A program made the translations under genes and the position numbers. Positions 6,487-55,615 of a DNA stretch of 64,000 bases are shown here, piece by piece. The stretch comes from Elusimicrobiota bacterium (GTDB taxonomy: Bacteria; Elusimicrobiota; Elusimicrobia; UBA1565; UBA9628): the NCBI GenBank assembly GCA_026388095.1, contig JAPLKL010000044.1, forward strand, positions 3,993 to 67,992, given 5' to 3'. How positions within the stretch are numbered: the stretch's first letter is position 1; each line of letters starts with the position of its first letter. The notes beneath the pieces were generated by a model that saw nothing but the letters and a program-made list of their open reading frames with translations, was not told the DNA's origin and did no database searches.

Positions 6487-6760
6487 CTATCAATTTTACG
6501 CGAGTAGATGGCGTTATGATAATGGCGTGAATAGCAATTCATATAATTGACATACAAACAACTGATTAGATATATTCAATCCAGCACCAGGGATGCCACA
6601 TCGTTGCCGCTATTTCATGCGGGCCGCACGGAATCAGGCTGCTAGGCTCTGGGGGAGTGTTGTTATGCGGGACAGCAGGAGGCGTATGCACCATACAAAA
6701 AGGAAAGATGGCGTCTTTAACCTACATTCCGCAACTCGCGGGCAGCGCATGGGGGAGACT

Positions 6761-7435
6761 ATGCAAAGAGAAGGTGCGGCGCATCAAATGTTCCTAACGC
6801 TGATAATGGCATACGTCGCGGGCTTTTGTTTGCCTCTGTCCGCAGCGGCGGAAACAGGAGCCGCCTTCCCGGTGCAACGTGCCAGCCTGGAAAATCCGGC
6901 TGCCGACGCCGCACGATGGAAAACGGTTCACCAGTTGGAAATTCATGCGGGTCCTATGTATCCAATTTCAGCCGATAGCGGGATTTCAGCTGACCAGGGG
7001 ACGATGTTCGGAGGAGCTTATCTGGCGCAGCTTTCTCGCCACTTTGCCATAGGCGTTGAGTTGGACAGCCTCGACTTCGACTTCAAGAATGCATCATTTG
7101 GAGCAGGAAAATACCATTTCCAGGCTCTCTCATATTTGTTGATCGGGGAACTCGGTTCGTCCTTCGTGGAAGAGCGTTTCGGCTATGGAGTCAGATTTGG
7201 CTTGGGCGGCAACCATACCACAATAAAAGGCAGGGGCAGTGTCGACTTCCGCGAAGCGGGCGAGTATCCCATGGCCATGATCGGCGCAGGGCTATGGTAT
7301 TCGCCGGTAAAGCCTCTGCGATGTGACGTCCGCTATGGAGCCCGGCTTTTTGAATTGGAACCGCGAGCCCAGAGCAGGCTGGGTGTCGCCAACGAACTTG
7401 TTTTCGCGCTTTCGGCCCGCTTCGGCGGGAAATGA
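6761..7435 (+). CDS. Outer-membrane beta-barrel protein (OmpA-like/porin family) with signal peptide.
   Basis: Starts MQREGAAHQMFLTLIMAYVAGFCLPLSAAAE (signal peptide). Alternating beta-strand pattern and a C-terminal ...FALSARF aromatic end. The first 56 codons of the annotated ORF are probably not translated. Confidence 0.6.
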   Translation: MQREGAAHQMFLTLIMAYVAGFCLPLSAAAETGAAFPVQRASLENPAADAARWKTVHQLEIHAGPMYPISADSGISADQGTMFGGAYLAQLSRHFAIGVELDSLDFDFKNASFGAGKYHFQALSYLLIGELGSSFVEERFGYGVRFGLGGNHTTIKGRGSVDFREAGEYPMAMIGAGLWYSPVKPLRCDVRYGARLFELEPRAQSRLGVANELVFALSARFGGK

Positions 7436-7455
7436 CGATCAAGGAGCAAAATAAA

Positions 7456-7803
7456 ATGAAAAAAACCGCATTGCTAATGGCAGCGTTGGCTCTGGGGCTG
7501 GCTGGCTGCACATACTACCTTCCTCACCAGATGGCCGCGTCCAACGTACCGATCAACCCGCCCAGCTACGAGGTAGTAGGGCCGGCAGCCGGAGAATCCT
7601 GTCGTTCTCTATTGCTCACCATAATACCCGTGGGAGGCAGTAACCGCCTGCAAGCTGCTATTGACGCGGCGCTCAAGAAATCCGGAGGCGATGCTCTGAT
7701 TGAAGTGACTTCGGACTACAAGGTGCTCTATGTTTATCCTTTCTTTGCTCAGCATTGCACGCTCGTCAATGGGCTGGCGATCAAAAGACAGCAGGGGCGG
7801 TAG
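7456..7803 (+). CDS. TRL-like lipoprotein.
   Basis: MKKTALLMAALALGLAGC lipobox with an AAGGAG RBS 9 nt upstream. The C-terminal SGGDALIEVTSDYKVLYVYPFFAQHCTLVNGLAIK resembles the TRL-like (PF13146) family. Confidence 0.55.
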   Translation: MKKTALLMAALALGLAGCTYYLPHQMAASNVPINPPSYEVVGPAAGESCRSLLLTIIPVGGSNRLQAAIDAALKKSGGDALIEVTSDYKVLYVYPFFAQHCTLVNGLAIKRQQGR

Positions 7804-7952
7804 ACCTCACCATTTCGGGCAAAGCACAGCTCAGAGACCTGTCCGAGTAATATGGTTCCCATCCCCGTTTTGCAACTTTGGAAGGGGGGGGTGGCGAGGC
7901 GACTTGGCCAAAATGGGGCTGTTTAGCCTACAACCACGAGGAGGGAAAAACA

Positions 7953-8249
7953 ATGAAAAAACTAGCACGGGGTCTTTCGGTCTTGGTGGTGGCGATTGTC
8001 GCCGCTGTTGCGCTTAGTGGATGTGGTCTCATTATCAGCAGCACCTGGCACTCAGGATCACAAGTTGTTTCGGCAGAGGGAAACTGCATGCGGATGTGCG
8101 AGAATACTTATGAATCGTGCTCTACAGGGTGCAAGGTTCAAAGCAGCCCCCTGGATCTGCTTCTTTGGGACCCGTGTAACGACGGTTGTCACGATAAGCG
8201 AGAAAACTGCTACCTCGGTTGCCCTGGTGTGGTAAAGAAAGCAAAGTGA
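7953..8249 (+). CDS. Small cysteine-rich lipoprotein.
   Basis: MKKLARGLSVLVVAIVAAVALSGC lipobox with a GGAGGG RBS. The mature part contains 9 Cys (CMRMCENTYESCSTGC...CNDGCHDKRENCYLGC). Confidence 0.55.
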   Translation: MKKLARGLSVLVVAIVAAVALSGCGLIISSTWHSGSQVVSAEGNCMRMCENTYESCSTGCKVQSSPLDLLLWDPCNDGCHDKRENCYLGCPGVVKKAK

Positions 8250-8550: not shown

Positions 8551-11043
8551 ATGAACGACCAGAAGCCCCTTTTCCTGACCGACGCCCAGCTCCAAAACGA
8601 GATGGAGAAGTGCGAATACTGCGCGGAAAAGCCCTGCCAAGCGGGCTGCCCCGCGGACTGCTCCCCGGCCGATTTCATCATGGCCGCGATGAAGGGCGAA
8701 GCCTCGGACTACAAGCGCTCCGCGGCCTTGATCATGGGCCACAACCCGCTCGGCGGAGTGTGCGGCGCGGTCTGCCCGGACAAGCACTGCATGGCGAAGT
8801 GCTCGCATAAGGAGTTCGACGCTCCCCTCGACATCCCGGCCATGCAGGCCACCATCGTGCAGAAGGCCAAGGACCTGGGCGTCATGCCCCGCTTCGAGCT
8901 GGCCAAGCCCAACGGCAAGAAGGTCTCCGTGGTGGGCGCCGGCCCCGCAGGGCTGGGCGCGGCCGCGCTGCTGGCCCAGAAGGGCTACGCCGTGGACGTC
9001 TTCGACGCGGACCGCCGCGTGGGCGGCATGTGCAACCTCATCCCGGACTTCCGCCTGGACAAGCGCGTGCTCGACACGGACATCGACTTCCTGCGCTCGC
9101 TGGGCCACATCACCTTCAAGCTGGGCAAGAAGGTCCCGACGCCGGCGACCTTGGCCGCCAAGTACCACGCCGTGGTGGTGGCCTCCGGCCTGGACAACCC
9201 CATCCGCCTGGGCATCCCGGGCGAGGAAGCCTCCCTCAACTGGTTCGCCTGCCTCAAGGACCCGGCCAAGCACCCGCTCAAGGGCCGGCGCGTGGCCGTC
9301 ATCGGCGGCGGCGCCGTGGCCGCCGACTGCGCCGAGACCGCGGCCGAGCAGGGCGCGGCCTCAGTCGAGCTCTTCTGCCTGGAGAAGCTCGGCGAGATGC
9401 CGCTGACCGCCAAGGAGATGAAGGGCCTGCTCGACACCGGCGCCCAGATCACCGGCCGCATCAGCGTCACCGCCATCCTGGCCAAGGCCGGCAAGGCCGT
9501 GGGCCTGGAGACCGTCAAGGTCGCTCTGCCCAAGGGCAGGAAGTTCCATCCGCGCGAGGTCAAGGCCCTGGCGGGCTCGCAAGCTCGCCGCCAGGACATC
9601 GACTGCGTCATCATCGCCATCGGCTCGCGGCCCACGGTCAAGGCCGAGGAGCGCAAGGGCGTGTTCTTCGCCGGCGACATGCAGAACGGCCCCACCACGG
9701 TGGTGGAAGCCGTGGCCGCGGGCAAGAACGCGGCCTTGGAGCTAGACGCGTATCTCTCCAAGGGCCCCAAGCCCGCCATCGACAGGAAGGTCAAGAGCCA
9801 CGCCCTGCTGCCGGGCCGCAACCTCATGCCCGTGCCGCTGGAGGCCGACTTCTTCGGCCGCAAGATCATCTCGCCCTTCCTGCTTTCGGCCGCGCCGCCT
9901 TCGGACGGCTACGACCAGATGAGGAAGGCCTACGAGGCCGGCTGGCCGGGCGGCGTGATGAAGACCGCCTTCGACGGCGTGCCGATCCATATCCCGTCCG
10001 AATACATGTTCGCATTCACGCAGTCGACCTACGCCAACTGCGACAACGTTTCGGGCCATCACCTCGAGCGCGTGCGCCGCGAGATCGAGCGCCTGGTCAA
10101 GGAATACCCGGACCGCCTCACCATGGCCTCCACGGGCGGCCCGGTGACGGGCAACGACGAGAGCGATAAGAAGGGCTGGCAGTCCAACACCAAGAAGCTC
10201 GAGGACTGCGGCGTGATGGGCATCGAGTACAGCCTCTCCTGCCCGCAGGGCGGCGACGGCACCAAGGGCGACATCGTCAGCCAGGATGCGGAGCTCACGG
10301 CCAAGATCATCGGCTGGGTGCTCTCCAGCGGCGACCCGGACATCCCGAAGCTCTTCAAGCTCACGGCCGCAGTGACCGCGATCTACCCCATCATGGCCGA
10401 GATCAAGAAGGTCCTGGCGCGGTACCGCAACGCCAAGGCCGGAGTGACCTTGGCCAACACCTTCCCGACTTTGGGCTTCCGCAAGGGCGAGAAATCCACC
10501 TGGGAAGAGGGCGTGGTGGTGGGCATGAGCGGCGAGGGGGTCATCCCGATCTCGAACCTGACCTTGGCCAACGTCTCGCGCATGGGCGTGGCGGTCTCCG
10601 GCAACGGCGGCCCCATGGACTATAAGTCAGCCGCGGACTTCCTGGCTCTGGGCGCCAAGACCGTGCAGTTCTGCACCATCGTGATGAAGCAGGGCTACGG
10701 CATCATCGACGAGCTGCACTCGGGCGTCTCGCACCTGATGGAGGCGCGGGGGATCTCTTCGATGGACCAGCTCATCGGCCGGGCGCTGCCGGACCCCATC
10801 CGGGGCTTCATGGAGCTCTCTCCGGTCAAAAAGATCTCCGCGGTCAAGGACGAGCTCTGCATGCACTGCGGCAACTGCACCCGCTGCCCGTACCTGGCCG
10901 TCAGCCTCAGCGACGAGAAGGTCCCGGAGACCGACCCGGAGCGGTGCGTGGGCTGCTCCATCTGCACCCAGAAGTGCTTCTCCGGCGCGCTCTACATGCG
11001 CCAACGGACCCATAAGGAACTGGCCGCCCTGAAGGAAGCCTAA
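8551..11043 (+). CDS. Fused PreT/PreA-type NAD(P)-dependent dihydropyrimidine dehydrogenase-like oxidoreductase. GltD-like FAD/NAD(P) domain plus DHODH-like FMN domain plus C-terminal 2x[4Fe-4S].
   Basis: 830 aa. N-terminal Cys cluster; VSVVGAGPAGLGAAALLAQKG dinucleotide fold; second Rossmann VAVIGGGAVAADCAETA; GIEYSLSCPQGGDG DHODH-like motif; C-terminal CMHCGNCTRCP...CVGCSICTQKC ferredoxin motifs. Domain order is the same as mammalian DPD. Confidence 0.75.
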   Translation: MNDQKPLFLTDAQLQNEMEKCEYCAEKPCQAGCPADCSPADFIMAAMKGEASDYKRSAALIMGHNPLGGVCGAVCPDKHCMAKCSHKEFDAPLDIPAMQATIVQKAKDLGVMPRFELAKPNGKKVSVVGAGPAGLGAAALLAQKGYAVDVFDADRRVGGMCNLIPDFRLDKRVLDTDIDFLRSLGHITFKLGKKVPTPATLAAKYHAVVVASGLDNPIRLGIPGEEASLNWFACLKDPAKHPLKGRRVAVIGGGAVAADCAETAAEQGAASVELFCLEKLGEMPLTAKEMKGLLDTGAQITGRISVTAILAKAGKAVGLETVKVALPKGRKFHPREVKALAGSQARRQDIDCVIIAIGSRPTVKAEERKGVFFAGDMQNGPTTVVEAVAAGKNAALELDAYLSKGPKPAIDRKVKSHALLPGRNLMPVPLEADFFGRKIISPFLLSAAPPSDGYDQMRKAYEAGWPGGVMKTAFDGVPIHIPSEYMFAFTQSTYANCDNVSGHHLERVRREIERLVKEYPDRLTMASTGGPVTGNDESDKKGWQSNTKKLEDCGVMGIEYSLSCPQGGDGTKGDIVSQDAELTAKIIGWVLSSGDPDIPKLFKLTAAVTAIYPIMAEIKKVLARYRNAKAGVTLANTFPTLGFRKGEKSTWEEGVVVGMSGEGVIPISNLTLANVSRMGVAVSGNGGPMDYKSAADFLALGAKTVQFCTIVMKQGYGIIDELHSGVSHLMEARGISSMDQLIGRALPDPIRGFMELSPVKKISAVKDELCMHCGNCTRCPYLAVSLSDEKVPETDPERCVGCSICTQKCFSGALYMRQRTHKELAALKEA

Positions 11044-11049
11044 GGCCGG

Positions 11050-12267
11050 TTGCCGGTGCGCAGTCCTTTCCGCGGCCTGCCGCGGGCCTTCGTGGTCCTC
11101 TGGTGGGGCATGCTCGTCAACCGCCTCGGCGGTTTCGTGGTGCCCTTCCTGGCCATCTACCTGACCTCCCAGAGGGGGTTCAGCGTCGAGCGCGTGGGCC
11201 TGATCCTCTCGCTCTACGGCGCGGGCTCGGTTCTGGCCGGGCCCTTGGGGGGCTGGCTCTCCGACCGCTTGGGCCGCAAGGCCGTGATGGTGACCTCCTT
11301 GTGCCTGGGCGCGTGCTCGGTGCTGTCCTTGGCCGCGGTCCAGCGCGGGCCGGCCGTGGCCCTGGCCGTGTTCTGCGTCTCCTTCCTGGGGGACATGTAC
11401 CGGCCGGCCTGCTCGGCCATGGTGGCGGACCTCATCCCGGACCAGCGCCAGCGCGCCTTCGGCCTGGTCTATTGGGCCATCAACCTTGGCTTTTCCGGCG
11501 CCATGATCGTCGCGGGAGCCCTGATGCGTTTCGGCTTCCTGGTGCTCTTCACGGCCGACGCGGCCACCTCGCTCGCCTTCGCCGTGCTCGTGGCCCTGTT
11601 CGTGCCGGAGACCAGGCCCGAGGGGGGGACGGCCCATCCGCTCCACATCGCCGCGCCGTTCCGGGACGGCGGCTTCGTCGCTTTCTTCCTGCTCATGCTG
11701 GGCATCGCGATCATCTACAGCCAGGCGCACTGCACCTTGCCCGTGGACATGCAGCGCCACGGCATCTCCGCCGCCGGCTTCGGCTACATCATCGCCATCA
11801 ACGGGGTCATGATCGCCATCCTGCAGCCCTGGGTCGGCCAGCGGCTCGGGCGCCTGCCGCCCGCGCGGGTGCTGGCGCTCAACGGCCTGCTCACCGGCGT
11901 GGGCTTCGGCATCCAGGCCCTGGCCGGAGGCGCTCCCATCTACGTCGCGGCCATCGTGGTCTGGACGCTCGGCGAGATCATAGGCGCGCCCATGGCCTCC
12001 ACCGTCGTGGCGTCCCTGTCCCCGGCGTCTTTGCGCGGGACCTACCAGGGCGCCCTGCAGACCGCCTGGGGCGGAGGAGCGTTCCTGGCGCCGATGCTGG
12101 GCGGATTCGCGATGGGGAGCTTCGGCGGGCCGGCGCTCTGGGTCGGCTGCATGGTCCTGGGCTGCCTGGTGGGATTGGGGCATTGGCTCGTGACCGGGGC
12201 CATTTTGCAGCGCCGCAGCGCCCGGAATTTTTCTATGATGAGCGGACAGCCGCAACCGGAGGTCTGA
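11050..12267 (+). CDS. MFS transporter.
   Basis: About 12 TM helices. GPLGGWLSDRLGRKAVM is the MFS motif A. A TTG start is proposed; the true start could be the downstream ATG at 11110. Confidence 0.75.
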   Translation: MPVRSPFRGLPRAFVVLWWGMLVNRLGGFVVPFLAIYLTSQRGFSVERVGLILSLYGAGSVLAGPLGGWLSDRLGRKAVMVTSLCLGACSVLSLAAVQRGPAVALAVFCVSFLGDMYRPACSAMVADLIPDQRQRAFGLVYWAINLGFSGAMIVAGALMRFGFLVLFTADAATSLAFAVLVALFVPETRPEGGTAHPLHIAAPFRDGGFVAFFLLMLGIAIIYSQAHCTLPVDMQRHGISAAGFGYIIAINGVMIAILQPWVGQRLGRLPPARVLALNGLLTGVGFGIQALAGGAPIYVAAIVVWTLGEIIGAPMASTVVASLSPASLRGTYQGALQTAWGGGAFLAPMLGGFAMGSFGGPALWVGCMVLGCLVGLGHWLVTGAILQRRSARNFSMMSGQPQPEV

Positions 12268-12271
12268 AACC

Positions 12272-13603
12272 ATGCCCCGCAACATCCTGATCAAGAACGG
12301 CATCATCGCCACCTTGGGCGATGAGAACAAGGTCCTCTATGGCCACGCCCTGCTCATCCAGGACGGGCTCATCAAGACCATCGCGCCGCAAGGGACCTTC
12401 CGGGGCAAGTACGCCAAGGTCATCGACGCCAAGGGCAAGGTGGTCCTGCCCGGCTTCATCAACGCGCACATGCACTTCTACAGCACGATGGTGCGCGGGC
12501 TGGGCAAAGCCGCCCCGTCCAAGGACTTTCAGGAGGTCCTCGAGAACCTGTGGTGGCGCCTCGACAAGAAGCTGACCGTGGAAGACTCCTACTACAGCGC
12601 GGTCCTGCCCCTCATCGACGCGGTCAAGCGGGGCACCACGACGCTCATCGACCACCACGCCAGCCCCTTCGCCGCGCGCGGCTCGCTCAGCAAGATCGCC
12701 CAGGCCGTCAAGGACGTCGGCCTGCGCGCGTCTTTGTGCTATGAGCTCTCGGACCGCGACGGGCCCAAGGTGGCGCAGGACGGCATCGACGAGAACCTGG
12801 CTTTCATCAAGACGTGCGCCAAGGACAAGGACCCGCAGCTCAAGGCCCTCTTCGGCCTGCACGCCTCCTTCACCATCAAGGACGCGACTCTGGAGAAGGC
12901 CTCCGCGGCCGGCCGCGAGCTGGGCGCGGGCTTCCACGTGCACACGGCCGAGGCCAAGTCCGACCAGGACTACAACATCAACAACTTCAACATGCGCGTG
13001 GTGGCGCGCCTGCAGAAGTTCGGCATCCTGGGGCCCAAGACCATCGCGGCGCACTGCGTGCACGTCGACGAGGACGAGATGAGCCTGCTGCGCGACACGG
13101 GCACGGCCGTGGCGCACAACCCGCAGTCCAACATGAACAACGCGGTCGGCGTGGCCGACATCATCAAGATGTCCCAGAAAGGCATTTTGGTGGGCCTGGG
13201 CACCGACGCCATGACCGTGAACATGCTCGAGGAGGTGCGCGTCGCCCTTTGGGCCCAGCACCTGTCCCACAACAACCCGAGCGTGGGCTTCATGGAGGCG
13301 CTGGGCAGCCTCATGTTCAACAACGCCAAGATCGCCAACCGCTACTGGGACCCAAAGGTGGGCGTGCTGAAGGAAGGCTACGCGGCGGACGTGATCCTGA
13401 TGGACTACTGGCCGCCCACGCCCTTCGACGAGAGCACCTTCCTGGGGCACCTGGGCTTCGGGATCTCCCAGTCCTTCGTGGACACCACCATCTGCGGCGG
13501 CAAGGTGCTCATGGAAGGCAAGAAGCTCAAGATCGGCTTGGACGAGGCGGAAGTCGCGGCCAAGTCCCTGGAGCTCTCCAAGAAGCTCTGGGCCCGATTC
13601 TGA
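12272..13603 (+). CDS. ssnA: SsnA-like aminohydrolase/chlorohydrolase (amidohydrolase superfamily, ATZ/TRZ-type deaminase).
   Basis: 443 aa. PGFINAHMHFYSTMVRGLG is a metal-binding HxH motif; GFHVHTAEA and HCVHVDEDE further ligand motifs. Overall fits the guanine/cytosine-deaminase-like family. Confidence 0.75.
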   Translation: MPRNILIKNGIIATLGDENKVLYGHALLIQDGLIKTIAPQGTFRGKYAKVIDAKGKVVLPGFINAHMHFYSTMVRGLGKAAPSKDFQEVLENLWWRLDKKLTVEDSYYSAVLPLIDAVKRGTTTLIDHHASPFAARGSLSKIAQAVKDVGLRASLCYELSDRDGPKVAQDGIDENLAFIKTCAKDKDPQLKALFGLHASFTIKDATLEKASAAGRELGAGFHVHTAEAKSDQDYNINNFNMRVVARLQKFGILGPKTIAAHCVHVDEDEMSLLRDTGTAVAHNPQSNMNNAVGVADIIKMSQKGILVGLGTDAMTVNMLEEVRVALWAQHLSHNNPSVGFMEALGSLMFNNAKIANRYWDPKVGVLKEGYAADVILMDYWPPTPFDESTFLGHLGFGISQSFVDTTICGGKVLMEGKKLKIGLDEAEVAAKSLELSKKLWARF

Positions 13604-18037: not shown

Positions 18038-18269
18038 CAGGCTGCTGATAAACCCTCCAGCGGAAAGGACGGTGTCCGGACACAGTCCTTTCGGTAGCGG
18101 GCAACAGTCCGTCCCCGAATTGGCGAGCCGAAGGCTCGCCAGTCGCGCCGAAGGCGCCATCCTTCGTGCAACCTATCGGCTGGGTTCTGCCGCCCCGCTT
18201 CGCGGGTCGGTTGCGCCCGGCAGACGGCCGCCGGGCGCTCGCAGAACGGACTTTATCAGCAGCCTGCTA
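18035..18269. mobile_element. MITE-like 235-bp structured intergenic element bounded by 18-bp perfect terminal inverted repeats.
   Basis: TAGCAGGCTGCTGATAAA at 18035-18052 and TTTATCAGCAGCCTGCTA at 18252-18269. Each TIR contains the stop codon (TAG) of a convergent gene, so both genes end TAG+CAGGCTGCTGATAAA. The interior is packed with hairpins (GGAAAGGACGGTGTCC/GGACACAGTCCTTTCGG; GGCGAGC-CGAAG-GCTCGCC; GCGCC-GAA-GGCGC). Confidence 0.5.
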
Positions 18270-18776
18270 GCCCTTGAAGACGATGAATTTGCGCGCGGCG
18301 AAGTTGATGGCCAGGGACGCGGCGGCGTTGGCGGCGTAGGCGTACGTGGTGGGCAAGCCGGTCCATTGGATCAGGGCCCAGCCCAGGGCGGTCCCGATGG
18401 CGAAGCTGGCCGCGGAGACCGCGTAGAAGAGCGCGAACTCCATGGCCTTGCTGTGCCGGCCTCTGGTGAAGACCCACAGGACGTTGGCGACATAGGCCGT
18501 CAGGTTGGAGAACATGAAGGCGATGACCTTGTCCCAGACGTAATGGGCCGAGCGGACGCCCTCAGGGATGGCCGCCGTGTGCAGGCCGAGCAGGCGCGCG
18601 GCGGGGTCGCCGGGATTGAGGGCGGGCAGAAGCAGGACGGCGGCGAGGTAGAAGACCAGGACGTCCACCGCGGTGGCGAGGACGCCGCAAACGGCGTATT
18701 TGGCGAACTGGACCAGCGGGTGAGCATCCCGCCGGAGGCATTGCTCCCAAAGGCGCCGCGCGTATCGCCCCATCAT
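18267..18776 (-). CDS. GtrA-family membrane protein (polysaccharide synthesis/translocation).
   Basis: 169 aa, 4 TM. YAVCGVLATAVDVLVFY...AARKFIVFKG is typical GtrA-like. Confidence 0.7.
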   Translation of the reverse strand: MMGRYARRLWEQCLRRDAHPLVQFAKYAVCGVLATAVDVLVFYLAAVLLLPALNPGDPAARLLGLHTAAIPEGVRSAHYVWDKVIAFMFSNLTAYVANVLWVFTRGRHSKAMEFALFYAVSAASFAIGTALGWALIQWTGLPTTYAYAANAAASLAINFAARKFIVFKG

Positions 18777-18844: not shown

Positions 18845-19576
18845 TCAGAGGTTGATGTCGACCTGCAGGGTGAAGGTGTTCTTGCCGGCCACGGCGCGGT
18901 TGTTGTAGATGTCGTAGCCGAGGATCACGCTGGTCTTCTCGGAAAAGGCCCAGGAGAAGCCCAGGTTGGTGGCGCCCGCCAGCGACTGCCCGCCCTGATA
19001 GTCCACGGCGAGCCAGAGCTTGTCCGATATCTCCTTCATGGTCCGGTCCCAGGAGAGCAGGACCCCGTTGTTGGCCACATGCCCCTGCTCATCGCGCAGA
19101 ACGGCGCCGTTGCCGCCGTAGTAGCCGGCGGAGAGACGGCCCACCTTCGGCAGGGTCCCGGCGGCCAGGCCGTAGACGATGTCCTGGTTGGTGAACCCGT
19201 TCTTGGTCCCGATGTTGTAGCCGCCGATCGCCAGGGCGGGGGACCACTCGGCCAGGGAGTTCTCCGGCGTGCCCAACTTCCCGTGGAAATAGAGGGGGTT
19301 GTTGTCGAGGACCTTGTCGCCCTGATACATCAGGTCGAATCCGGTCTCGGCCTGTATCTGTTTTGTGGGCAATATACCGATGGTGGGGCCGATCATGGAG
19401 ACCGGGCCCTTCCTGGTCCCGGTGTTCTCGTCCTGGCTGCGCAGGTAGGCGTCGATGTTGAGGTGCAGGACCTTGTAGGGCTGGATATCCGTGGAAGGGA
19501 TCCAGATCTGCGTCGAGGGCGTGGCTCCCGCCGCGGCGGGAAAGCCCAGGGCCAACAGCGCGATGAAGATCTTCAT
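18845..19576 (-). CDS. Outer-membrane beta-barrel porin, co-transcribed downstream of amt.
   Basis: MKIFIALLALGFPAAAGA signal peptide (AGGA RBS 8 nt upstream). Ends ...FTLQVDINL. About 80% identical to the paralogue at 24007-24738. Confidence 0.7.
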   Translation of the reverse strand: MKIFIALLALGFPAAAGATPSTQIWIPSTDIQPYKVLHLNIDAYLRSQDENTGTRKGPVSMIGPTIGILPTKQIQAETGFDLMYQGDKVLDNNPLYFHGKLGTPENSLAEWSPALAIGGYNIGTKNGFTNQDIVYGLAAGTLPKVGRLSAGYYGGNGAVLRDEQGHVANNGVLLSWDRTMKEISDKLWLAVDYQGGQSLAGATNLGFSWAFSEKTSVILGYDIYNNRAVAGKNTFTLQVDINL

Positions 19577-19655
19577 GGCGTTCATCCTATCAGTTCGCGA
19601 GGGACCGACGGGGCCCAGACAGGCGGCGTAGCCTGTCTGGGCCGTTGCGCGGACG

Positions 19656-20870
19656 TCAGGTCTGCAGGTAAGCCGTCTCTCCATGCACGCTCTCGTCGAG
19701 GCCCATTTCCTGTTCCTCAGCCGAGGTGCGTACCGGGGTGATCATGTTGATGAGGAACAGCATGACGTAGGTGAAGATGAAGGCGTAGATGGCGGCGCCC
19801 ACCACGGCGATGCCTTCCTTCAGGAAGAAGTTCACGTTGCCGTGGATGAGGCCGTCGGCGCCGTTGGGGTTGACGAACTTGGTGGCGAATATCCCCAGGC
19901 AGAACACTCCCAGAACCCCGCCCACGCCGTGCACGCCCCAGACGTCGAGCGCGTCGTCCCAGTTCATCTTGTTCTTGATGTTGACCGCGATGTAGCAGAC
20001 CACGCTGGAGGCGATGCCGATGAGGACCGCGCTCTTGACCGTGACGTAGCCGGCCGCGGGCGTGATGGTGGCCAGCCCCGCGATGGAGCCGGTCAGCAGC
20101 CCCACGAACTTGGGCTTCTTCTCGATGACCCAGGCCAGGATGAGCCAGGTGGTGGCCGCGAAGGAGGCGGCCACGTCGGTGTTGACGAAGGCCTGCGCGG
20201 TCACGGCGTCGACCTTGAGCTCGCTGCCCGCGTTGAAGCCGTACCAGCCGAACCACAAGAGGCCCGTGCCCAGGGCGACCAGCGGGATGCTGTGCGCGGC
20301 GGCGTCCGAGACCTTGCGCTTGCCCACGAAGAAGACCGAGGCCAGCGCCGCCATGCCGGCGGAGGCGTGGACCACGATGCCGCCCGCGAAGTCGAGCACG
20401 CCGTGCTTGGCCAGCAGGCCGTTGCCCCAGACCATGTGCGCCAGCGGGAAGTACACGAACAGCAGCCAGGCCACCAGGAAGATCAGGTAGGCCTTGAAGT
20501 TGACCCGGTTCGTGAAGGCCCCGGTGATGAGCGCCGGGGTGATCTGGGCGAACATCATCTGGTAGGCGAAGAACACGAACACCGGGATGCTGCTCACGCC
20601 GGAGAAGGCCTGGTTGAGGCTCATGCCGCGCATGAAGGCGTTGTCGAGGTTGCCGATGATGGCTCCTTCCCCGCCGCTGAAGCAGAGGGAATAGCCGCAG
20701 ACGTACCAGAGCACGGTGGTGACGCCCATGGAGACGAAGCTCTGGATCATGATGGCCAGGACGTTCTTGCGGCCGACGAGTCCGCCGTAGAAGAACGCCA
20801 GGCCGGGAGTCATGAGCATGACCAGGCTGGTGGCCACGAGCATGAATCCGGTATTGCCGGTGTCGAACAT
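19656..20870 (-). CDS. amt: Ammonium transporter (Amt/MEP family).
   Basis: 404 aa with Amt signatures (DFAGGIVVHASAGMAALA, GWYGFNAGS, VWGVHGVGGVLG). Confidence 0.9.
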   Translation of the reverse strand: MFDTGNTGFMLVATSLVMLMTPGLAFFYGGLVGRKNVLAIMIQSFVSMGVTTVLWYVCGYSLCFSGGEGAIIGNLDNAFMRGMSLNQAFSGVSSIPVFVFFAYQMMFAQITPALITGAFTNRVNFKAYLIFLVAWLLFVYFPLAHMVWGNGLLAKHGVLDFAGGIVVHASAGMAALASVFFVGKRKVSDAAAHSIPLVALGTGLLWFGWYGFNAGSELKVDAVTAQAFVNTDVAASFAATTWLILAWVIEKKPKFVGLLTGSIAGLATITPAAGYVTVKSAVLIGIASSVVCYIAVNIKNKMNWDDALDVWGVHGVGGVLGVFCLGIFATKFVNPNGADGLIHGNVNFFLKEGIAVVGAAIYAFIFTYVMLFLINMITPVRTSAEEQEMGLDESVHGETAYLQT

Positions 20871-21031
20871 GTTCTCTCTCCTTCCTTATTGAAATGACGG
20901 CCCTAGGGCCGGGAAGGCCCCCATGCCAGGAAACACTAGCTAACTGGGCGCGGGCGCCGAATCAGGGTTTTCCTGAGAACGGCCCGCCAAATCCCTGAGA
21001 CGGCGCATGTGTTATAATCACGAAGACCAGC

Positions 21032-22153
21032 ATGCAGACATCCCCCAAGGCCGTGGGCGGCCCCGCGCGCGGTCTCGAGCAGCGCCAGCAGAGGCGCATC
21101 CGGATACTCCACCTGTTCCAGGAGAGGGTCAAGGAACTGGCCGCGACCATGCTCCAGGATGACGCGCAGGACATCGCCGCGCTCCTGCGCGAGGTGGTCG
21201 CCATGCTGCCTTCGGCTTGGCAGTACCCGGCGTCGGCCTCGGCCCGGATCCGGCTGGACCAGCAGGAGTTCCGCGCCCCGGATTTCGAGGCCACCCCATG
21301 GCGGCAGAGCGCGGCCTTCGTCACGAGCGACGGACGCCGAGGCCTCATCGAGGTGGTCTATCTCAAGGAGTTCCCCCAGGCGGCCGAGGGCCCCTTCTTG
21401 GCCGAGGAAAGGAAGCTCATCGATTTCCTGGCCGAGATGTTCCGCGGCTTCATGGATAGGAAGATCGCCCGGCAGGCTCTGGTGGCTTCCCGCGACTCCT
21501 ACCAGGAGCAGCTCCGTTGTCTGGCCGCGCAGCTTTCGCTGACCGAGGAGCGGGAACGCCGCGCCCTCGCGGCCGACCTGCACGACCACATCGGCCAGAC
21601 TCTGGCCGCGGCCCGGCTCAAGCTGAGCGCCCTGGCCGGGACTCGCGAGACCGAGGCGGTCCGGGCCCTGTTGGATGAGGCCATCCAGTACACCCGCTCG
21701 CTGACCTTCGAGCTGAGCTCCCCGGTCCTTTACGAGTTGGGCTTGGCGCCCGCCCTGGAGCAACTGGCCGAGCGGATGCAGGAGAAGCACGGCCTCGGCA
21801 TCGAGGTCCATGATGACGGGGCCGCCAAGCCCATGGACGACGAGGTCCGGGTCGTGCTGTTCAAGGCGGTGCGGGAGCTGCTCATGAACGTGGTCAAGCA
21901 CGCCCGCGCCGGCCGGGCCACGGTCGCCCTGCGCAAGGTCGACCGGGCCGTCGAGATCTCCGTGGCGGACGACGGGGTGGGCTGCTCCGCCGAACAGGCC
22001 GCGGCTTCGGCCGGGTCGGGGGGCTTCGGGCTTTTCAGCATCCGGGAAGGGCTGCGCCACTGCGGCGGAGAGTTCGCGATCCGGCCCCGGGCAGGGCGGG
22101 GGACCGAAGCCACTCTCAGGGCTCCGCTCCGGGCCGCGGACCGGGGGCATTGA
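21032..22153 (+). CDS. Cytoplasmic sensor histidine kinase, HisKA_3/NarL-partner type, with N-terminal sensory (GAF/PAS-like) domain.
   Basis: No TM segments. ERERRALAADLHDHIGQTL is the HisKA_3 H-box. HATPase_c (LLMNVVKHARA...GGFGLFSIRE). Confidence 0.8.
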   Translation: MQTSPKAVGGPARGLEQRQQRRIRILHLFQERVKELAATMLQDDAQDIAALLREVVAMLPSAWQYPASASARIRLDQQEFRAPDFEATPWRQSAAFVTSDGRRGLIEVVYLKEFPQAAEGPFLAEERKLIDFLAEMFRGFMDRKIARQALVASRDSYQEQLRCLAAQLSLTEERERRALAADLHDHIGQTLAAARLKLSALAGTRETEAVRALLDEAIQYTRSLTFELSSPVLYELGLAPALEQLAERMQEKHGLGIEVHDDGAAKPMDDEVRVVLFKAVRELLMNVVKHARAGRATVALRKVDRAVEISVADDGVGCSAEQAAASAGSGGFGLFSIREGLRHCGGEFAIRPRAGRGTEATLRAPLRAADRGH

Positions 22154-22154
22154 C

Positions 22155-22802
22155 TTGGAGACGCGGCTGCTGCTCTGCGACGACCATAAGCTCTTCCGGG
22201 AAGGCCTGAAGACCCTGCTGGAGAAGAGGCCGGGCCTGCGGGTCGTCGCCGAGGCGGCCGACGGCCCGGGCGCGGTGGCCGCCAGCCTGGAGTCCCGTCC
22301 GGACGTCGTCATCATGGACATCTCCATGCCCAGGCTCAACGGCATCGAGGCGACCCGCAAGATCCTGGAACTGCGCCCGGATTGCCGGGTCATCGTCTTA
22401 TCCATGCACTCGGACCGCCGCTTCGTCAAGGAGGCCTTGAAGGCCGGCGCGTCGGCCTACCTGCTCAAGGACTCGGCTTGCGACGAGCTCTGCGCAGCGG
22501 TCGCCGCTGTAGCGGAAGGCAAGACTTACCTGAGTCCCGCCATCGCCCATATCGTGGTCGCGGAATGCGTGGGCCGCGGTTCCCGGGATGACGGGGCGGC
22601 GTTCTCCGTGCTCTCCGCCCGCGAGCGCGAGGTCCTGCAGCTCCTGGCCGAGGGCCGGTCGACCAAGCAGATCGCCCTGCACCTGCGCCTCAGCGTCAAG
22701 ACCGTCGAGACCCACCGCATGCAGACCATGCGGAAGCTCGACATCCACAGCATCGCCGGCCTGACCAAGTACGCGATCCAGGAGGGGCTCGTCTCGTTAT
22801 GA
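22155..22802 (+). CDS. NarL/LuxR-family response regulator.
   Basis: Receiver (LLLCDDHKLFREGL...VVIMDISMP) and C-terminal LuxR HTH (LSAREREVLQLLAEGRSTKQIALHLRLSVKTVETHR). TTG start. Confidence 0.85.
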   Translation: METRLLLCDDHKLFREGLKTLLEKRPGLRVVAEAADGPGAVAASLESRPDVVIMDISMPRLNGIEATRKILELRPDCRVIVLSMHSDRRFVKEALKAGASAYLLKDSACDELCAAVAAVAEGKTYLSPAIAHIVVAECVGRGSRDDGAAFSVLSAREREVLQLLAEGRSTKQIALHLRLSVKTVETHRMQTMRKLDIHSIAGLTKYAIQEGLVSL

Positions 22803-24010
22803 GCATCGCCCGGAAGGTGTTCTTCGTGGCCGCCAGCTTCGCCTTGCCCATCATCGTGCTGGCCTTCTTGGTGGTGCGCAGCATCAACGAGCACATCACC
22901 TTCGCGCGCTGCGAGCTGGCCGGGACCGCCTACCAGCGCCCCTTGGAGGCCCTGCTCTGGGACATCCAGGATCACCAACTGTCCGGGCAGGCCGCGGCCT
23001 TGACAGGCACCATCCGCCAGGAGCTGGCGGCCCTGCAGGCCGTGGACCGCCGCTACGGGGTCCTGCTGCAGTTCACGGGCGAGGGCCTGGCCAGGCGCGG
23101 CCGGCAGCTCGCCACCGCGGGCAATCTCCAGCGCGGCTGGGAGCGGCTGGAGGCTCTCAGCTCCCGGGGGAGGTCTCCCGAGCTCGACGCCCAGTACGAC
23201 AAGCTGACCGCCATCATCCAGACCATGATCACGCACGTGGGCGACATGTCCAACCTGATCCTGGACCCGGAGCTCGACACCTTCCATCTCATCACCGACA
23301 CGCTGGTGCTGCTGCCCAAGACGCAGGCGCGCCTGGCGCGGGCCACGGGTGCCGGGCGCCTGGATCATACGGACCGGATGGCTCTGGCCGTCCAGGCCTC
23401 CTTCCTGGAATCGGAGCGCGGACAGATCAAGTCCCATCTGGACACCGCACTCAGCGAGAATTCCAACGAGTTCCACGGCGCCTTGGACTCGTTCCAAAAG
23501 AACGTCCCGATCGCCTACGAGGAGTACGAGTCCGCGGTGAACCGGTTCATCGCCCTGGCCAAGCGGGCCGCCGACGGCGGCCGCCCGGTCGTGCCGGCGC
23601 AGGACTACGTCGCGGCCGGCCGGAGCGCGCGCGAGGCGAGCTTCCGCCTCTGGGACGCGGCCGTCCCCGAGTTGGACCGGCTGCTCCAGGCCCGCATCGA
23701 CTACTACACCAAGCGCAAGGTCGTGGCTTTGCTGCTCTCCGGCCTGGCCCTGCTGCTGGCCTGCCTGTTGGCTTACCGGATAGCGGCCAGCCTGATCCAT
23801 CCCCTCAACCGGATATCCCGCACGCTGACCCCGGGCGCCGACCTGCTCGACGGCAGCGTGCAGAAGCTGGCCGATTTCACCGATAAGGGGGCGCAGGACC
23901 TCACCTCGATGCGCATCACCTGCGACGAGCTCGACGCCCATGCCGAGAATATGCGCAAGACCGCGCGCGAGCTGGCCGCGGTCGTCTTCGGGGACCGCGG
24001 CCGCGCCTAG
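22799..24010 (+). CDS. Membrane-anchored periplasmic sensor-module protein with no output domain (TM, ~280-aa helical periplasmic domain, TM, short cytoplasmic tail).
   Basis: TM1 FFVAASFALPIIVLAFLVV and TM2 VVALLLSGLALLLACLLAYRIAA. Periplasmic part resembles MCP/HK ligand-binding four-helix/NIT-like modules. Start overlaps the RR stop. Confidence 0.6.
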   Translation: MSIARKVFFVAASFALPIIVLAFLVVRSINEHITFARCELAGTAYQRPLEALLWDIQDHQLSGQAAALTGTIRQELAALQAVDRRYGVLLQFTGEGLARRGRQLATAGNLQRGWERLEALSSRGRSPELDAQYDKLTAIIQTMITHVGDMSNLILDPELDTFHLITDTLVLLPKTQARLARATGAGRLDHTDRMALAVQASFLESERGQIKSHLDTALSENSNEFHGALDSFQKNVPIAYEEYESAVNRFIALAKRAADGGRPVVPAQDYVAAGRSAREASFRLWDAAVPELDRLLQARIDYYTKRKVVALLLSGLALLLACLLAYRIAASLIHPLNRISRTLTPGADLLDGSVQKLADFTDKGAQDLTSMRITCDELDAHAENMRKTARELAAVVFGDRGRA

Positions 24011-24738
24011 AGGTTGATGTCGACCTGCAGGGTGAAGGTGTTCTTGCCGGCCACGGCGCGGTCGTTCCAGATGTCGTAGGCGAAGAGCACGCTGGTCTTC
24101 TCGGAGAAGGCCCAGGAGAAGCCCAGGTTGGTCGCGCCCAGCAGATTCTGGCCGCCCTGGTACTCCACCGCGCACCAGAGCTTCTTGGAGATCTCGGCCA
24201 TGGCGCGGTCCCAGGAGACCAGGACGCCGTGGTTGGCCGTATGCCCCTGCTCGTCGCGCAGAACGGCGCCGTTGCCGCCGTAGTAGCCGGCGGAGAGACG
24301 GCCTACCTTCGGCAGGGTCCTGGCGGCCAGGCCGTAGACGACGTCCTGGTTGGTGAATCCGTTCTTGGTCCCGATGTTGTAGCCGCCGATGGCCAGGGCC
24401 GGCGACCATTCGTGCAACGACTTCTCCGGCGTGCCGACCTTGCCGTGAAAATAGAGCGGGTTGTTGTCGAGGGCCTTGTCGCCCTGGTACATCAGATCGA
24501 AGCCGGCCTCGGCCCGGATATCCTGGTAGGGCATGACTCCGATGGTCGGTCCGGTCATGTACATCGGCCCCTTGCGCGTCCCGTTGTTCTCGTCCTGGGT
24601 GCGCAGGAAGGCGTCGAAGTTGAGGTGCAGCACCTTGTAGGCCTGGATGTCCGTGGAAGGGATCAGGATCTGGCCTGAGGGCGTGGCCCGGGCCGGGGCG
24701 GCCAGGGCCAGGATCGACAGCGCGATGAAGGTTCTCAT
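24007..24738 (-). CDS. Outer-membrane beta-barrel porin, paralogue of 18845-19576.
   Basis: MRTFIALSILALAAPARA signal peptide. Long near-identical DNA stretches with the first copy (for example, a ~54-bp exact match at the 3' end). Confidence 0.7.
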   Translation of the reverse strand: MRTFIALSILALAAPARATPSGQILIPSTDIQAYKVLHLNFDAFLRTQDENNGTRKGPMYMTGPTIGVMPYQDIRAEAGFDLMYQGDKALDNNPLYFHGKVGTPEKSLHEWSPALAIGGYNIGTKNGFTNQDVVYGLAARTLPKVGRLSAGYYGGNGAVLRDEQGHTANHGVLVSWDRAMAEISKKLWCAVEYQGGQNLLGATNLGFSWAFSEKTSVLFAYDIWNDRAVAGKNTFTLQVDINL

Positions 24739-24872
24739 GGTCCTCCTGCCGTCCGGAAGTATATCAAACCAGCATCCGCCGCCGCGCCGGCATCTCGGCA
24801 CCCCGGTTCCAAATTGGTATCATAGCCGTAACGTCCCATGCGTCCCGTGCACATATCCCTGAAGGAGGAAAC

Positions 24873-27047
24873 ATGCCCCATCGCAGCCACGCCCCGGAGA
24901 GCCTCGCCCAGATGACCCCCCGCCGCGGATCCCAAACCCAGAAGGTTTCGGACTATTTCGGCTGCAACGTGTTCGGCCCGGAGACCATGCGCCTGCTCCT
25001 GCCCAAGGACACCTACCGGCGGCTGCGCGAGGCCGTGGACCTCGGCAAGCGCATCGAGCCGGAGGTCGCCAACGCCGTGGCCGCGGCCATGAAGACCTGG
25101 GCCCTCTCCAAGGGCGCCACCCACTACTGCCATTGGTTCCAGCCCATGACCGGCTACACCGCGGAGAAGCACGACAGCTTCGTGGAGCCCACGGGCGACG
25201 GGCGGGCCATAGAGAAGTTCTCCGGCCGCCACCTGGTGCAGGCCGAGCCCGACGCGTCCTCCTTCCCCTCGGGCGGCCTGCGCGTCACCTTCGAGGCCCG
25301 CGGCTACACGGCCTGGGACCCCACTTCCCCGGCCTTCATCATGGAGATGAAGGGCGGCGCCACCCTGTGCATCCCCACCATCTTCGTCTCCTACAACGGC
25401 CAGTCCTTGGACGACAAGACGCCGCTGCTGCGCTCCTGCGACGTCATCAGCAAGGCGGCCCTGGACATCCTCAAGCTGTTCAAGAGCGACGCGGCCAAGG
25501 TCCACGCGACCTTGGGCGCCGAGCAGGAGTACTTCCTGGTCGACCGTTCCTATTATGAGAGCCGGCCCGACCTGCTCATGGCCGGGCGCACCCTCGTGGG
25601 CGCGCCGTCGCCCAAGGGCCAGCAGCTCGAGGACCACTACTTCGGCAGCATCAAGGAGCGGGTCTTCGCCTTCATGAACGAGGCGGAGAGCGAGCTTTAT
25701 AAGCTGGGCGTGCCGGTCAAGACCCGGCACAACGAGGTGGCTCCCAACCAGTTCGAGAGCGCCCCGGTCTTCGAGGAAGTCAACGTGGCGGTGGACCACA
25801 ACCAGCTGGTCATGGACGTCCTGGACCGCATCGCCATCCGCCACGGCCTGGCCGTGCTCCTGCACGAGAAGCCCTTCGCGGGCATCAACGGCAGCGGCAA
25901 GCACTGCAACTGGTCCCTGGCGACCGACACGGGCAAGAACCTCCTGACCCCGGGCGACACGCCGAACGAGAACCTGCAGTTCGTGGTCTTCCTGGCCTGC
26001 ATCGTCAAGGCCGTGCACGACAACCCGCTGTTCCTGCGCGCCACCGTGGCCTCGGCCGGCAACGACCACCGCCTGGGCGCCAACGAGGCGCCGCCGGCCA
26101 TCATGTCGGTGTTTTTGGGCGGGCACCTGACCAAGGTCTTCGCGGACATCGAGAAAGGCGTGCACCCCAAGGGCCAGGACAAGGAGTGGATGTCCTTCGG
26201 CCTCTCCCGCATCCCGCCCATCCTGCGCGACAACACGGACCGCAACCGCACCTCGCCCTTCGCCTTCACCGGCGACAAGTTCGAGTTCCGGGCCGTGGGC
26301 TCGTCCTTCAACACCGCCCTGCCCATCACCATCCTGCACGCCATCGTGGCGGCGCAGCTGCGGCAGGCCAAGACAGACATCGAGGCCAAGCTCAAGAAGA
26401 AGCCCTTCAAGGACGCGGTCCTGGAGGTGCTGCGCGGCTACATCAAGCAGTCCAAGGCCATCTGCTTCGAGGGCAACAATTACTCCGCCGCCTGGGTGAA
26501 GGAAGCGGCCAAGCGCGGCTTGCCCAATGTGCAAACGACTCCTGACGCCCTGGAGGGTTTCAGCCGTCGGGAGAACGGGGCCCTGCTGGAGCGCCTGGGC
26601 ATCATGAGCGCGGAGGAGAGCCTCTCCCGCGAGCACGTCAAGCTCGAGAAGTACGCCAAGGACATCGAGATCGAGGCCCGGCTGCTCATGGAGATGGTGG
26701 AGACCCAGATCGTGCCGGCCGGCCTGCAGTACCAGAACCGGGTCGCTGAGGCGGTGCGCGGACTGCGCGAACTGCTGCCCTCCGAAGCGGCTCTGGATAC
26801 CCAGATCGGACTCCTGCGCAACGTCGCGGACCACATCGACCGCGCCAGCAAGGGCGTGACCGAACTGCGCCTGGCCGTGGCGCGGGCCGTGGATGAGGAG
26901 GACGGCGCACCCCGGGCGCGCTTCTACTGCCACAAGGTCAAGCCGCTCTTCACCCCCATCCGGGAGGCGGTGGATGGGCTCGAGGGCCTGGTGGACGCGG
27001 AACTCTGGCCCCTTCCCAAGTACCGGGAGATGCTCTTCCTCCTTTAG
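24873..27047 (+). CDS. glnN: Glutamine synthetase type III.
   Basis: 724 aa. Starts ...QKVSDYFGCNVFGPETMR... as in Bacteroides-type GS-III, with the catalytic region conserved. Confidence 0.85.
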   Translation: MPHRSHAPESLAQMTPRRGSQTQKVSDYFGCNVFGPETMRLLLPKDTYRRLREAVDLGKRIEPEVANAVAAAMKTWALSKGATHYCHWFQPMTGYTAEKHDSFVEPTGDGRAIEKFSGRHLVQAEPDASSFPSGGLRVTFEARGYTAWDPTSPAFIMEMKGGATLCIPTIFVSYNGQSLDDKTPLLRSCDVISKAALDILKLFKSDAAKVHATLGAEQEYFLVDRSYYESRPDLLMAGRTLVGAPSPKGQQLEDHYFGSIKERVFAFMNEAESELYKLGVPVKTRHNEVAPNQFESAPVFEEVNVAVDHNQLVMDVLDRIAIRHGLAVLLHEKPFAGINGSGKHCNWSLATDTGKNLLTPGDTPNENLQFVVFLACIVKAVHDNPLFLRATVASAGNDHRLGANEAPPAIMSVFLGGHLTKVFADIEKGVHPKGQDKEWMSFGLSRIPPILRDNTDRNRTSPFAFTGDKFEFRAVGSSFNTALPITILHAIVAAQLRQAKTDIEAKLKKKPFKDAVLEVLRGYIKQSKAICFEGNNYSAAWVKEAAKRGLPNVQTTPDALEGFSRRENGALLERLGIMSAEESLSREHVKLEKYAKDIEIEARLLMEMVETQIVPAGLQYQNRVAEAVRGLRELLPSEAALDTQIGLLRNVADHIDRASKGVTELRLAVARAVDEEDGAPRARFYCHKVKPLFTPIREAVDGLEGLVDAELWPLPKYREMLFLL

Positions 27048-55603: not shown

Positions 55604-55615
55604 TTGAGGGGAGAC

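Follow-up and report, generated by a model that had tools for sequence, protein, structure and literature searches.

Why should a gene for a small outer-membrane beta-barrel stand directly behind a gene for an ammonium transporter, and what might such a barrel carry? The question is raised by a 64 kb stretch of DNA (the window) from an Elusimicrobia metagenome-assembled genome (MAG), in which amt (19656-20870, minus strand) is followed on the same strand, after a spacer of 79 nt, by a barrel gene (barrel 1, 18845-19576). A paralogue of this gene (barrel 2, 24007-24738, minus strand) lies divergently from glnN, which encodes a type III glutamine synthetase (GS-III; 24873-27047, plus strand). 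An original prediction, made from the DNA sequence, had read the arrangement as a porin standing in for glnK within a porin-Amt-GSIII module for nitrogen scavenging. Every element that it named, including amt with the outer-membrane barrel downstream, was recovered at, or a few bases from, its predicted position by analysis of open reading frames (ORFs), Pfam, and NCBIfam. The comparison with relatives described below led to a changed reading of these elements. We are inclined, if only slightly, to regard the barrel as a cation-selective outer-membrane channel that would raise the flux of NH4+ (or K+) when the inner-membrane importer is induced, and that would here be switched on together with amt by a NarL-type regulator.

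The two proteins at the centre of this reading were readily defined. The amt product (404 aa) is a transporter of the Amt/AmtB type and a member of the Amt/Mep/Rh family, matching PF00909 at 2.9e-108 (362.6 bits, profile positions 2-399 of 399) and TIGR00836 with 400.3 bits, above the curated cutoff of 343.3. Barrel 1 is a secreted protein of 243 aa that starts with MKIF... and is the same as the database protein NTY77_10485. Barrel 2, also of 243 aa, corresponds to NTY77_10510 and was identified as its paralogue by BLASTP (E 7e-151).

Gene context was read in 79 loci from species-representative genomes (labelled in the style L001), which together hold 80 family genes and reach up to 10 kb to each side; the window proteins and E. 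coli PII were mapped onto them. The sample spans Elusimicrobia, Geobacteraceae/Pelobacteraceae/Desulfuromonas, Deferrimicrobiaceae, Nitrospirota, Polyangia, and Opitutaceae/Verrucomicrobiota. The barrel was found to adjoin amt on the same strand in 58 of the 80 family genes, in Elusimicrobia, Geobacteraceae/Desulfuromonadales, Deferrimicrobiaceae, Nitrospirota, and Polyangia. The order amt>barrel, with no PII gene within 4 kb of the barrel, accounts for 28 genes (all from Elusimicrobia except one Polyangia locus), and barrel>amt>PII or barrel>PII>amt for 27 (Geobacteraceae, Deferrimicrobia, Nitrospirota). Two more have amt>PII>barrel or PII>amt>barrel, and one has barrel>amt where the contig ends. 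The remaining copies are divergent from glnN (three), at contig ends (four), in kdp operons (two), or in other contexts (13, a figure that includes a third kdp case, L073, found with Pfam). Unsupervised clustering of the flanking ORFs likewise recovered amt in 56 loci, PII in 29, a NarL-type regulator in 23, and a HisKA_3 kinase in 22. Because the adjacency persists through four gene orders beside amt (amt>barrel, barrel>amt>PII, barrel>PII>amt, and amt>PII>barrel), and hence through repeated rearrangement, the linkage appears to have been selected rather than merely inherited. Linkage of amt and porin in related genomes had been named beforehand as the point on which the original prediction could fail; it proved to be conserved, and the idea survived.

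The absence of a PII gene from the window was also borne out, as tblastn searches with E. coli GlnB and GlnK gave a best E of 0.07 over 17 residues. The amt gene does not form a canonical amtB-glnK pair, since no PII gene adjoins it and none lies within the 64 kb, and no PII gene was found anywhere in the 28 amt>barrel loci. The further claim that the porin takes the place of glnK did not hold, however. Barrel, PII, and amt are clustered together in 29 loci, and L003, a close Elusimicrobia relative with a barrel 80% identical, has the order amt-PII-barrel, so that the barrel is best seen as an addition to Amt and not as a substitute for PII. Separate amt-PII pairs are carried by the Elusimicrobia relatives L003 and L080, and in an Elusimicrobia assembly other than that of the window an amt-PII pair is followed by a 181-aa protein without a Pfam match. 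Judged from these gene orders, the rule that pairs amt with glnK is apparently not deeply violated, and other phyla add the barrel to amt-glnK.

The strongest available clue to the substrate of the barrel is its linkage to Kdp. In L049 (Elusimicrobia) the order is barrel>kdpA>kdpB>kdpC, in L040 (Geobacteraceae) barrel>kdpA, and in L073 (Nitrospirota), as read with Pfam, kdpA-B-C>PII>barrel>kdpD. The closest relative of each of these barrels is linked to amt: L054 for the barrel of L049 (79% identical), L059 for that of L040 (74%), and L077, on a second contig of the same MAG, for that of L073 (85%). This pattern, in which the nearest kin of every kdp copy is an amt-linked barrel from the same lineage, points to three independent recruitments of a paralogue to kdp. 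Amt and Kdp are high-affinity importers of NH4+ and K+, both of them monovalent cations of similar size, and the three kdp-operon copies shift the reading from a nitrogen porin to a channel for cations of the NH4+/K+ class. In the mechanism proposed here, the barrels would pass ammonium, or potassium in the case of the paralogues, through the outer membrane and so feed high-affinity uptake at the inner membrane. The dedicated route for ammonium or small nitrogen compounds that had been predicted is thereby retained in part: movement of ammonium is the most economical reading, but strict nitrogen specificity is opposed by the kdp copies. The kdp operon of L073 (L073:5613-13401, MAG contig CAVTDB010000018.1) is of separate interest for its PII-family gene (93 aa; PF00543, 8e-22). 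Such a gene, for a signal protein of the nitrogen type, is an unusual companion of a potassium pump and gives a hint of cross-talk between NH4+ and K+.

The barrel is the first gene of sigma-54 barrel-glnK-amtB operons in Geobacteraceae and Deferrimicrobia. Of 25 loci from these and related groups, 21 have a canonical sigma-54 -24/-12 motif, TGGCACG-N4-TGCT, ahead of the barrel gene, and several Geobacteraceae leaders contain small hairpins together with a terminator-like hairpin followed by a T-run. A Geobacter operon described as 'hypothetical protein-glnK-amtB' (Gsul_0938 homologues) is up-regulated during nitrogen fixation (Ueki & Lovley 2010, PMC2995071), and GSU0938 and GSU0939 (PII) are listed as a single unit affected by RpoN in Leang et al. 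2009 (PMC2725144). The family loci resemble this operon in the order barrel>PII>amt, seen in at least 10 Geobacteraceae loci, in the sigma-54 promoter, and in the terminator-like hairpin of the leader, whereas the papers treat the first gene solely as a hypothetical protein. Gene order and upstream signals indicate that GSU0938 is probably a member of the barrel family. The Elusimicrobia locus differs from the Geobacter operon in its amt>barrel order, in having no adjacent PII gene, and in a two-component system and a palindrome that appear to replace sigma-54.

The barrels could not be placed in any curated family. Neither barrel 1 nor barrel 2 matched Pfam at E<=0.01 or NCBIfam at E<=1. Ten divergent members of the family, searched against Pfam, returned no family and a single sub-threshold match, to Porin_4 (20.9 bits, cutoff 27), and a family profile searched against PDB sequences gave nothing at E<=10. 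The listed relatives are all named 'hypothetical protein' in the databases, except for one JGI entry called 'opacity protein-like surface antigen'. The homology search yielded 3,006 matches; clustering at 50% identity gave 519 clusters at E<=1e-3 and 340 at E<=1e-10. In an alignment of 25 sequences from several phyla, mean column identity was 62%, and both ends of the protein were conserved, the mature N-terminus reading ATPSTQIWIPSTD right after the signal peptide and the C-terminus ...QVDIN(L/F/W), with a hydrophobic or aromatic final residue throughout the family.

An AlphaFold2 model computed with the family alignment (pLDDT 83.9, pTM 0.77) consisted of a signal helix and 12 beta-strands, with the signal peptide ending in AGA just before a T. 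The signal peptide, the 12 amphipathic antiparallel strands, and the C-terminal residue are, in this predicted model, those of a 12-stranded outer-membrane barrel, the fold also seen in KdgM, NanC, COG4313, FapF, and autotransporter beta-domains. Autotransporter beta-domains, LpxR, and intimin were among its lower-ranked structural neighbours. A general bacterial porin (a 16- or 18-stranded trimer; Porin_1, Porin_4, and related families) was considered and rejected, as no porin model matched and 12 strands were predicted. The label 'porin' was thus apt in so far as it denoted an outer-membrane beta-barrel, but misplaced if taken to mean a classical porin, since the protein belongs to no described family by sequence. 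On the strength of the model, the family would comprise small, monomer-sized, 12-stranded outer-membrane barrels that have gone uncurated. The polar face of the predicted strands bears the invariant residues D45, E80, D84, D180, D195, D225, and D243, as against K103 and R150, which suggests a lumen with a net negative, acidic character.

How amt and barrel 1 are controlled was read from the genes and promoters of the Elusimicrobia loci. The usual order in this group is kinase>regulator>amt>barrel on one strand, whereas in the window the kinase operon is inverted and divergent from amt. A kinase orthologue was found upstream of amt in 22 loci, and a regulator orthologue immediately upstream in 23, of which 20 have regulator and amt on one strand. 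The kinase, the NarL-type regulator, and an orphan protein were found between the two barrels of the window, at 21032-24010, as had been predicted. The first gene (21032-22153, plus strand) encodes a soluble HisKA_3 histidine kinase, with HisKA_3 and HATPase_c matches behind an uncharacterised N-terminal domain of about 160 aa; the N-terminal 170 aa gave no Pfam match even at E 10. The second (22155-22802, plus strand) encodes a NarL/LuxR-type response regulator (Response_reg 5.6e-29, GerE 1.4e-18). Their domains and side-by-side genes are those of a NarL/LuxR two-component system with a HisKA_3 kinase. The best NCBIfam similarities of the two proteins were to MctS, UhpB, NarX, and NarQ, all far below cutoffs, and orthology is not claimed. 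A perfect TATAAT at 21013-21018 precedes the ATG of the kinase gene (21032) by only 13 nt, and the same sequence is present in L008; this implies that the kinase transcript is nearly leaderless or that the start codon is mis-set.

The third gene (22799-24010, plus strand), an ORF whose start overlaps the stop codon of the regulator, encodes a protein of 403 aa in which two hydrophobic segments, but no known domain, were recognised. Between these segments lies an all-helical region of about 280 aa, which would be periplasmic, and a short cytoplasmic tail is also present. The protein gave no Pfam or PDB match, its sole match being a weak one to the transmembrane/HAMP region of BaeS (E 0.019), and single-sequence AlphaFold2 predicted an all-helical structure with low confidence (pLDDT 56.7). 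Orthologues were found in L006 and L008.

The amt promoter contains the palindrome TCAGGAAAACCCTGA (20962-20976, minus strand; motif scan), a candidate site for the NarL-type regulator and the only copy in the 64 kb. Of 23 regions upstream of amt in Elusimicrobia, 21 contain the palindrome in the form TCAGGGAATCCCTGA. A -10-like hexamer, TATAAT in 18 loci, was matched in 19 loci and in the window, and in all of them the palindrome begins 38 nt ahead of it. At this distance, the centre of the palindrome would fall near -41, a typical position for an activator. In 20 of the 23 regions a further element, TAAGGTTTTT, precedes the palindrome by about 22 nt, and its positional counterpart in the window is the half-site-like element TCAGGGATTTGG (20988-20999, minus strand; sequence reading). 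The palindrome is a probable binding site of the adjacent NarL-type regulator, as judged from these motifs. The soluble HisKA_3 kinase and the regulator would then turn on the amt promoter through the palindrome, and barrel 1 would be expressed by read-through from the same promoter.

The spacer between amt and barrel 1 contains a GC-rich stem-loop with a 13-bp stem and without a T-run (19612-19643, minus strand; sequence reading), and was folded by ViennaRNA at -38.6 kcal/mol. A GC-rich hairpin was likewise found in most of about 20 other Elusimicrobia amt>barrel spacers (e.g. L021, L033, and L051), usually with a T-run. In view of this intercistronic hairpin, the ratio of barrel to amt expression may be set by partial termination, RNA processing, or regulated attenuation. 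No known RNA element was detected in the amt/barrel locus by an Rfam scan of the whole window, the sole matches of which, a tRNA and a fluoride riboswitch, lie elsewhere.

Whether the same control extends to GS-III was judged from the 134-nt spacer between barrel 2 and glnN. The glnN product is a type III glutamine synthetase, with all three GS-III domains in one protein of 724 aa (GSIII_N 1e-76, Gln-synt_C 1.7e-20, and Gln-synt_C-ter 4.3e-39). The spacer contains promoter elements of the extended -10 type, which are conserved in L001, L005, and L007. The one assigned to barrel 2, TGATATACT (24758-24766, minus strand; consensus match only), has counterparts, TGATAGAAT and TGCTACAAT, before the orthologous barrels of L001 and L005. 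For glnN, a promoter scan revealed TCGGCA-17-TATCAT with a TG extension (24795-24823, plus strand), overlapping the weak sigma-54-like sequence CGGCACCCCGGTTCCA, and this promoter-like block is kept in L005 and L007. A scan for the NtcA motif (GTA-N8-TAC) found no site in the window. The only sigma-54-like match in the amt, barrel, and glnN spacers (24796-24811) has 2 mismatches, and such matches were not enriched over shuffles. Shared regulation of GS-III with amt-barrel 1 was rejected because the palindrome is missing from the barrel 2/glnN spacer. The predicted co-regulation is further weakened by the extended -10 promoters of that spacer and by the rarity of the glnN adjacency (3/80). The promoter sequences point instead to dedicated two-component control of amt-barrel 1, with no sign of sharing with GS-III. 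Elsewhere in the window, at 43201-43216 (plus strand), an exact sigma-54 consensus, TGGCACTCGCCTTGCT, was found at the annotated start of an ORF without a Pfam match (43191-44492), which suggests that the organism uses sigma-54, though apparently not at the amt promoter.

The juxtaposition with glnN is better explained by the history of the locus. Barrel 1 and barrel 2 are 81% identical in protein and 85% in DNA, with exact runs of 54, 50, 32, and 26 nt, in agreement with the predicted identity of about 80% and long exact runs. A central stretch of the two genes is 95-97% identical, a level far above chance, and this near-identical tract fits gene conversion. The three family genes that are divergent from glnN all come from close relatives of the window genome (L001:4607-8183, L005:1-2844, and L007:3653-7295), where glnN is divergent from a single barrel, without amt and the two-component cassette. 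Beyond this pair, L001 runs straight into the gene for the GtrA-like membrane protein that in the window (18267-18776, minus strand) adjoins barrel 1 on its downstream side, and L005 has a GH30 gene, which in the window sits just beyond the GtrA gene. In the window, the two barrels are direct repeats flanking amt and the two-component cassette. Since relatives lack the cassette, and since the barrels are direct repeats around it, the cassette can be regarded as an insertion/deletion polymorphism. It looks like the amt-barrel and two-component cassette was inserted into an ancestor with glnN and a divergent barrel, or was lost in the relatives by recombination between the barrel repeats; direct-repeat barrels could mediate gain or loss alike.

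The chances therefore appear even that the two barrels, amt, and the two-component system came to lie beside glnN by an accident of recent insertion or duplication, with no functional 'porin-Amt-GSIII module' behind it. The cassette-free relatives, among them L001 with its continuation into the GtrA gene, and the lack of the amt-promoter palindrome beside glnN agree with such an accident. That explanation reaches only the GS-III part, however: the full two-barrel architecture recurs in L008, and the amt-barrel pair itself is kept in about 30 Elusimicrobia species. The proposed module is accordingly set aside as a lineage-specific juxtaposition and not a conserved unit. Barrel 2 would be a lineage-specific duplicate with its own promoter of the extended -10 type beside glnN.

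Several observations weigh against a cation channel that is switched on together with amt. The function of the family rests on computation throughout, and the lumen-facing residues were assigned from strand alternation, not from model coordinates. When a Geobacter member of the family served as the query of a homology search, no G. sulfurreducens protein was among the best 120 matches. The strong hairpin between amt and the barrel may mean that co-transcription is partial or regulated. Unrelated contexts account for 13 of the 80 copies, and all four from Verrucomicrobia/Opitutaceae, found beside PocR-AraC regulators, are among them. Conservation is unusually high for a porin, loops and mature N-terminus included, and could reflect protein-protein interaction or an enzymatic role. 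Small cations are, moreover, generally assumed to pass through general porins, and may need no dedicated channel. In two of the Verrucomicrobiota/Opitutaceae loci (L058:8855-9853 and L079:8958-9830), the barrel is divergent from a PocR-sensor/AraC-type regulator and amt is not adjacent, which suggests a different regulatory or substrate context of the barrel in Verrucomicrobia.

The copies in unrelated neighbourhoods would agree with a barrel that acts as a small pore for non-specific diffusion or as a structural protein, co-regulated with scavenging operons and raising general permeability during starvation without selectivity for NH4+ or K+. The 12-stranded fold is uninformative on specificity, and the barrel 2-type copies have extended -10 promoters that look constitutive. 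We nevertheless consider a non-specific pore unlikely. The transporter neighbours are of two types only, Amt (58/80) and Kdp (3/80), which each import a monovalent cation, the two being alike in size; uptake operons for phosphate or sugars, or of any other kind, were not found beside the barrel in the 79 loci; and the polar-face residues are near-invariant across phyla, unlike those of fast-evolving general porins. The high conservation, which extends to non-strand segments and the mature N-terminus and includes invariant His, Asp, and Ser residues, would also suit a protein of the outer membrane that transports nothing and serves, under nitrogen control, as an enzyme or as a partner for docking or signalling, for instance of a component in the periplasm or inner membrane. 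Such a role is very unlikely, given that the family resembles no enzyme family by sequence, that no partner gene is consistently linked beyond amt, PII, and kdp, and that the dual association with Amt and Kdp is explained better by a class of substrate common to both than by a common need for an enzyme.

No description of the barrel family was found in the literature on Amt- or Kdp-associated porins. The family was also compared with channels of similar fold or logic. KdgM and NanC (PDB 4pr7, 2wjr, and 8xua) share the 12-stranded fold and are encoded beside their cognate uptake or catabolic genes; there is no Pfam or PDB sequence match between them and the barrel, however, and identity in structural alignment is 7-9%. 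The solutes of KdgM and NanC are acidic sugars and their pore is basic, whereas the lumen of the barrel appears to be acidic and its partners are cation importers. The COG4313 channel (Pput2725, PDB 4rl8; Phenol_MetA_deg) also forms a 12-stranded barrel after an N-terminal segment, but is 10% identical, and the barrel has no Pfam match that would place it in that family by sequence. COG4313 proteins are tied to the uptake of hydrophobic or aromatic compounds and not to Amt or Kdp. By analogy with COG4313 and OmpW, the barrel might be a conduit for uncharged NH3, or for a small hydrophobic or amphipathic nitrogen compound, instead of an ion channel, and other neighbours of the family, adenosine deaminase (L004) and an amino-acid permease (L037), could be cited in its favour. 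We regard a conduit of this kind as highly improbable: three independent recruitments to kdp are hard to square with a channel for a gas or a hydrophobic solute, the lumen is apparently rich in invariant acidic residues, and no sequence relation to the COG4313/Phenol_MetA_deg Pfam family was detected. Each of these alternatives accounts for the combined Amt and Kdp pattern less simply than a cation channel.

Specific porins induced by starvation provide a closer functional parallel. PhoE and OprP/OprO (both for phosphate, with Pst), LamB (with MalFGK), and FmdC (urea and short amides) are well-known examples. Like the proposed channel, they span the outer membrane, are encoded together with a high-affinity system of the inner membrane or share its regulation, and are induced by scarcity; unlike it, they are 16-18-stranded trimers for anions or sugars, whereas a 12-stranded barrel for cations is proposed here. 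The nearest experimental case of an outer-membrane porin controlling ammonium uptake is PorA of Methylotuvimicrobium buryatense 5GB1C, which sets a limit to the uptake of ammonium and gives a growth advantage at 0.2 mM NH4+ (bioRxiv 10.1101/2025.01.28.635327). PorA differs from the barrel in being a 16-stranded protein of 402 aa and of general type, unrelated in size and strand number and not reported to be linked to amt. According to the same 2025 preprint (10.1101/2025.01.28.635327), no ammonium-specific porin has been characterised.

Several features of the window lie outside the amt/barrel locus. The 480-aa product of a gene at 1116-2558 (plus strand) contains the catalytic domain of an ATP:guanido phosphotransferase (arginine kinase/McsB type). 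A trio of genes at 8551-13603 (plus strand), roughly 6 kb from the amt locus, encodes an 830-aa Fer4_20/Pyr_redox_2 oxidoreductase, related to the small subunit of glutamate synthase or to dihydropyrimidine dehydrogenase, an MFS transporter, and an amidohydrolase, and may be another cluster for the salvage of nitrogen compounds. At 6001-8000, G+C content dips to 0.55, compared with about 0.66 in the rest of the window, and the ORFs there are short and of low GC3 only; this segment may be foreign or non-coding DNA. The fluoride riboswitch (Rfam RF01734, 61.8 bits) is located at 55520-55585 (plus strand), directly upstream of a 386-aa ORF (55604-56764).

In the textbook view, NH4+ and K+ cross the outer membrane freely by way of general porins. 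The ties of the barrel to Amt and, repeatedly, to Kdp suggest that entry of these two cations through the outer membrane is a limiting and evolvable step at micromolar nutrient levels, as in groundwater, sediments, and soils. The logic of specific porins and the 12-stranded fold were known already; what appears to be new, as far as genomes and models can tell, is an uncurated channel family, its proposed substrate class, and the regulatory circuit. Tentatively, and with somewhat less than even expectation, the family may be the first dedicated outer-membrane ammonium channel, a cation-selective 12-stranded pore whose paralogues were repeatedly recruited to Amt or Kdp, and which in Elusimicrobia would be controlled by an undescribed kinase-regulator pair instead of NtrBC, sigma-54, and PII. 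A concrete function is thus proposed for a protein, probably the head of the Geobacter glnK-amtB operon, that has been listed as 'hypothetical' since 2009-2010 or earlier, and the family is a good candidate for a new Pfam or NCBIfam entry. For Elusimicrobia, a group with few cultured members, a defined promoter motif and a two-component system are put forward for the control of ammonium uptake. If the proposal is true, permeation of small cations through the outer membrane would be a selected and regulated step in nutrient-poor habitats.

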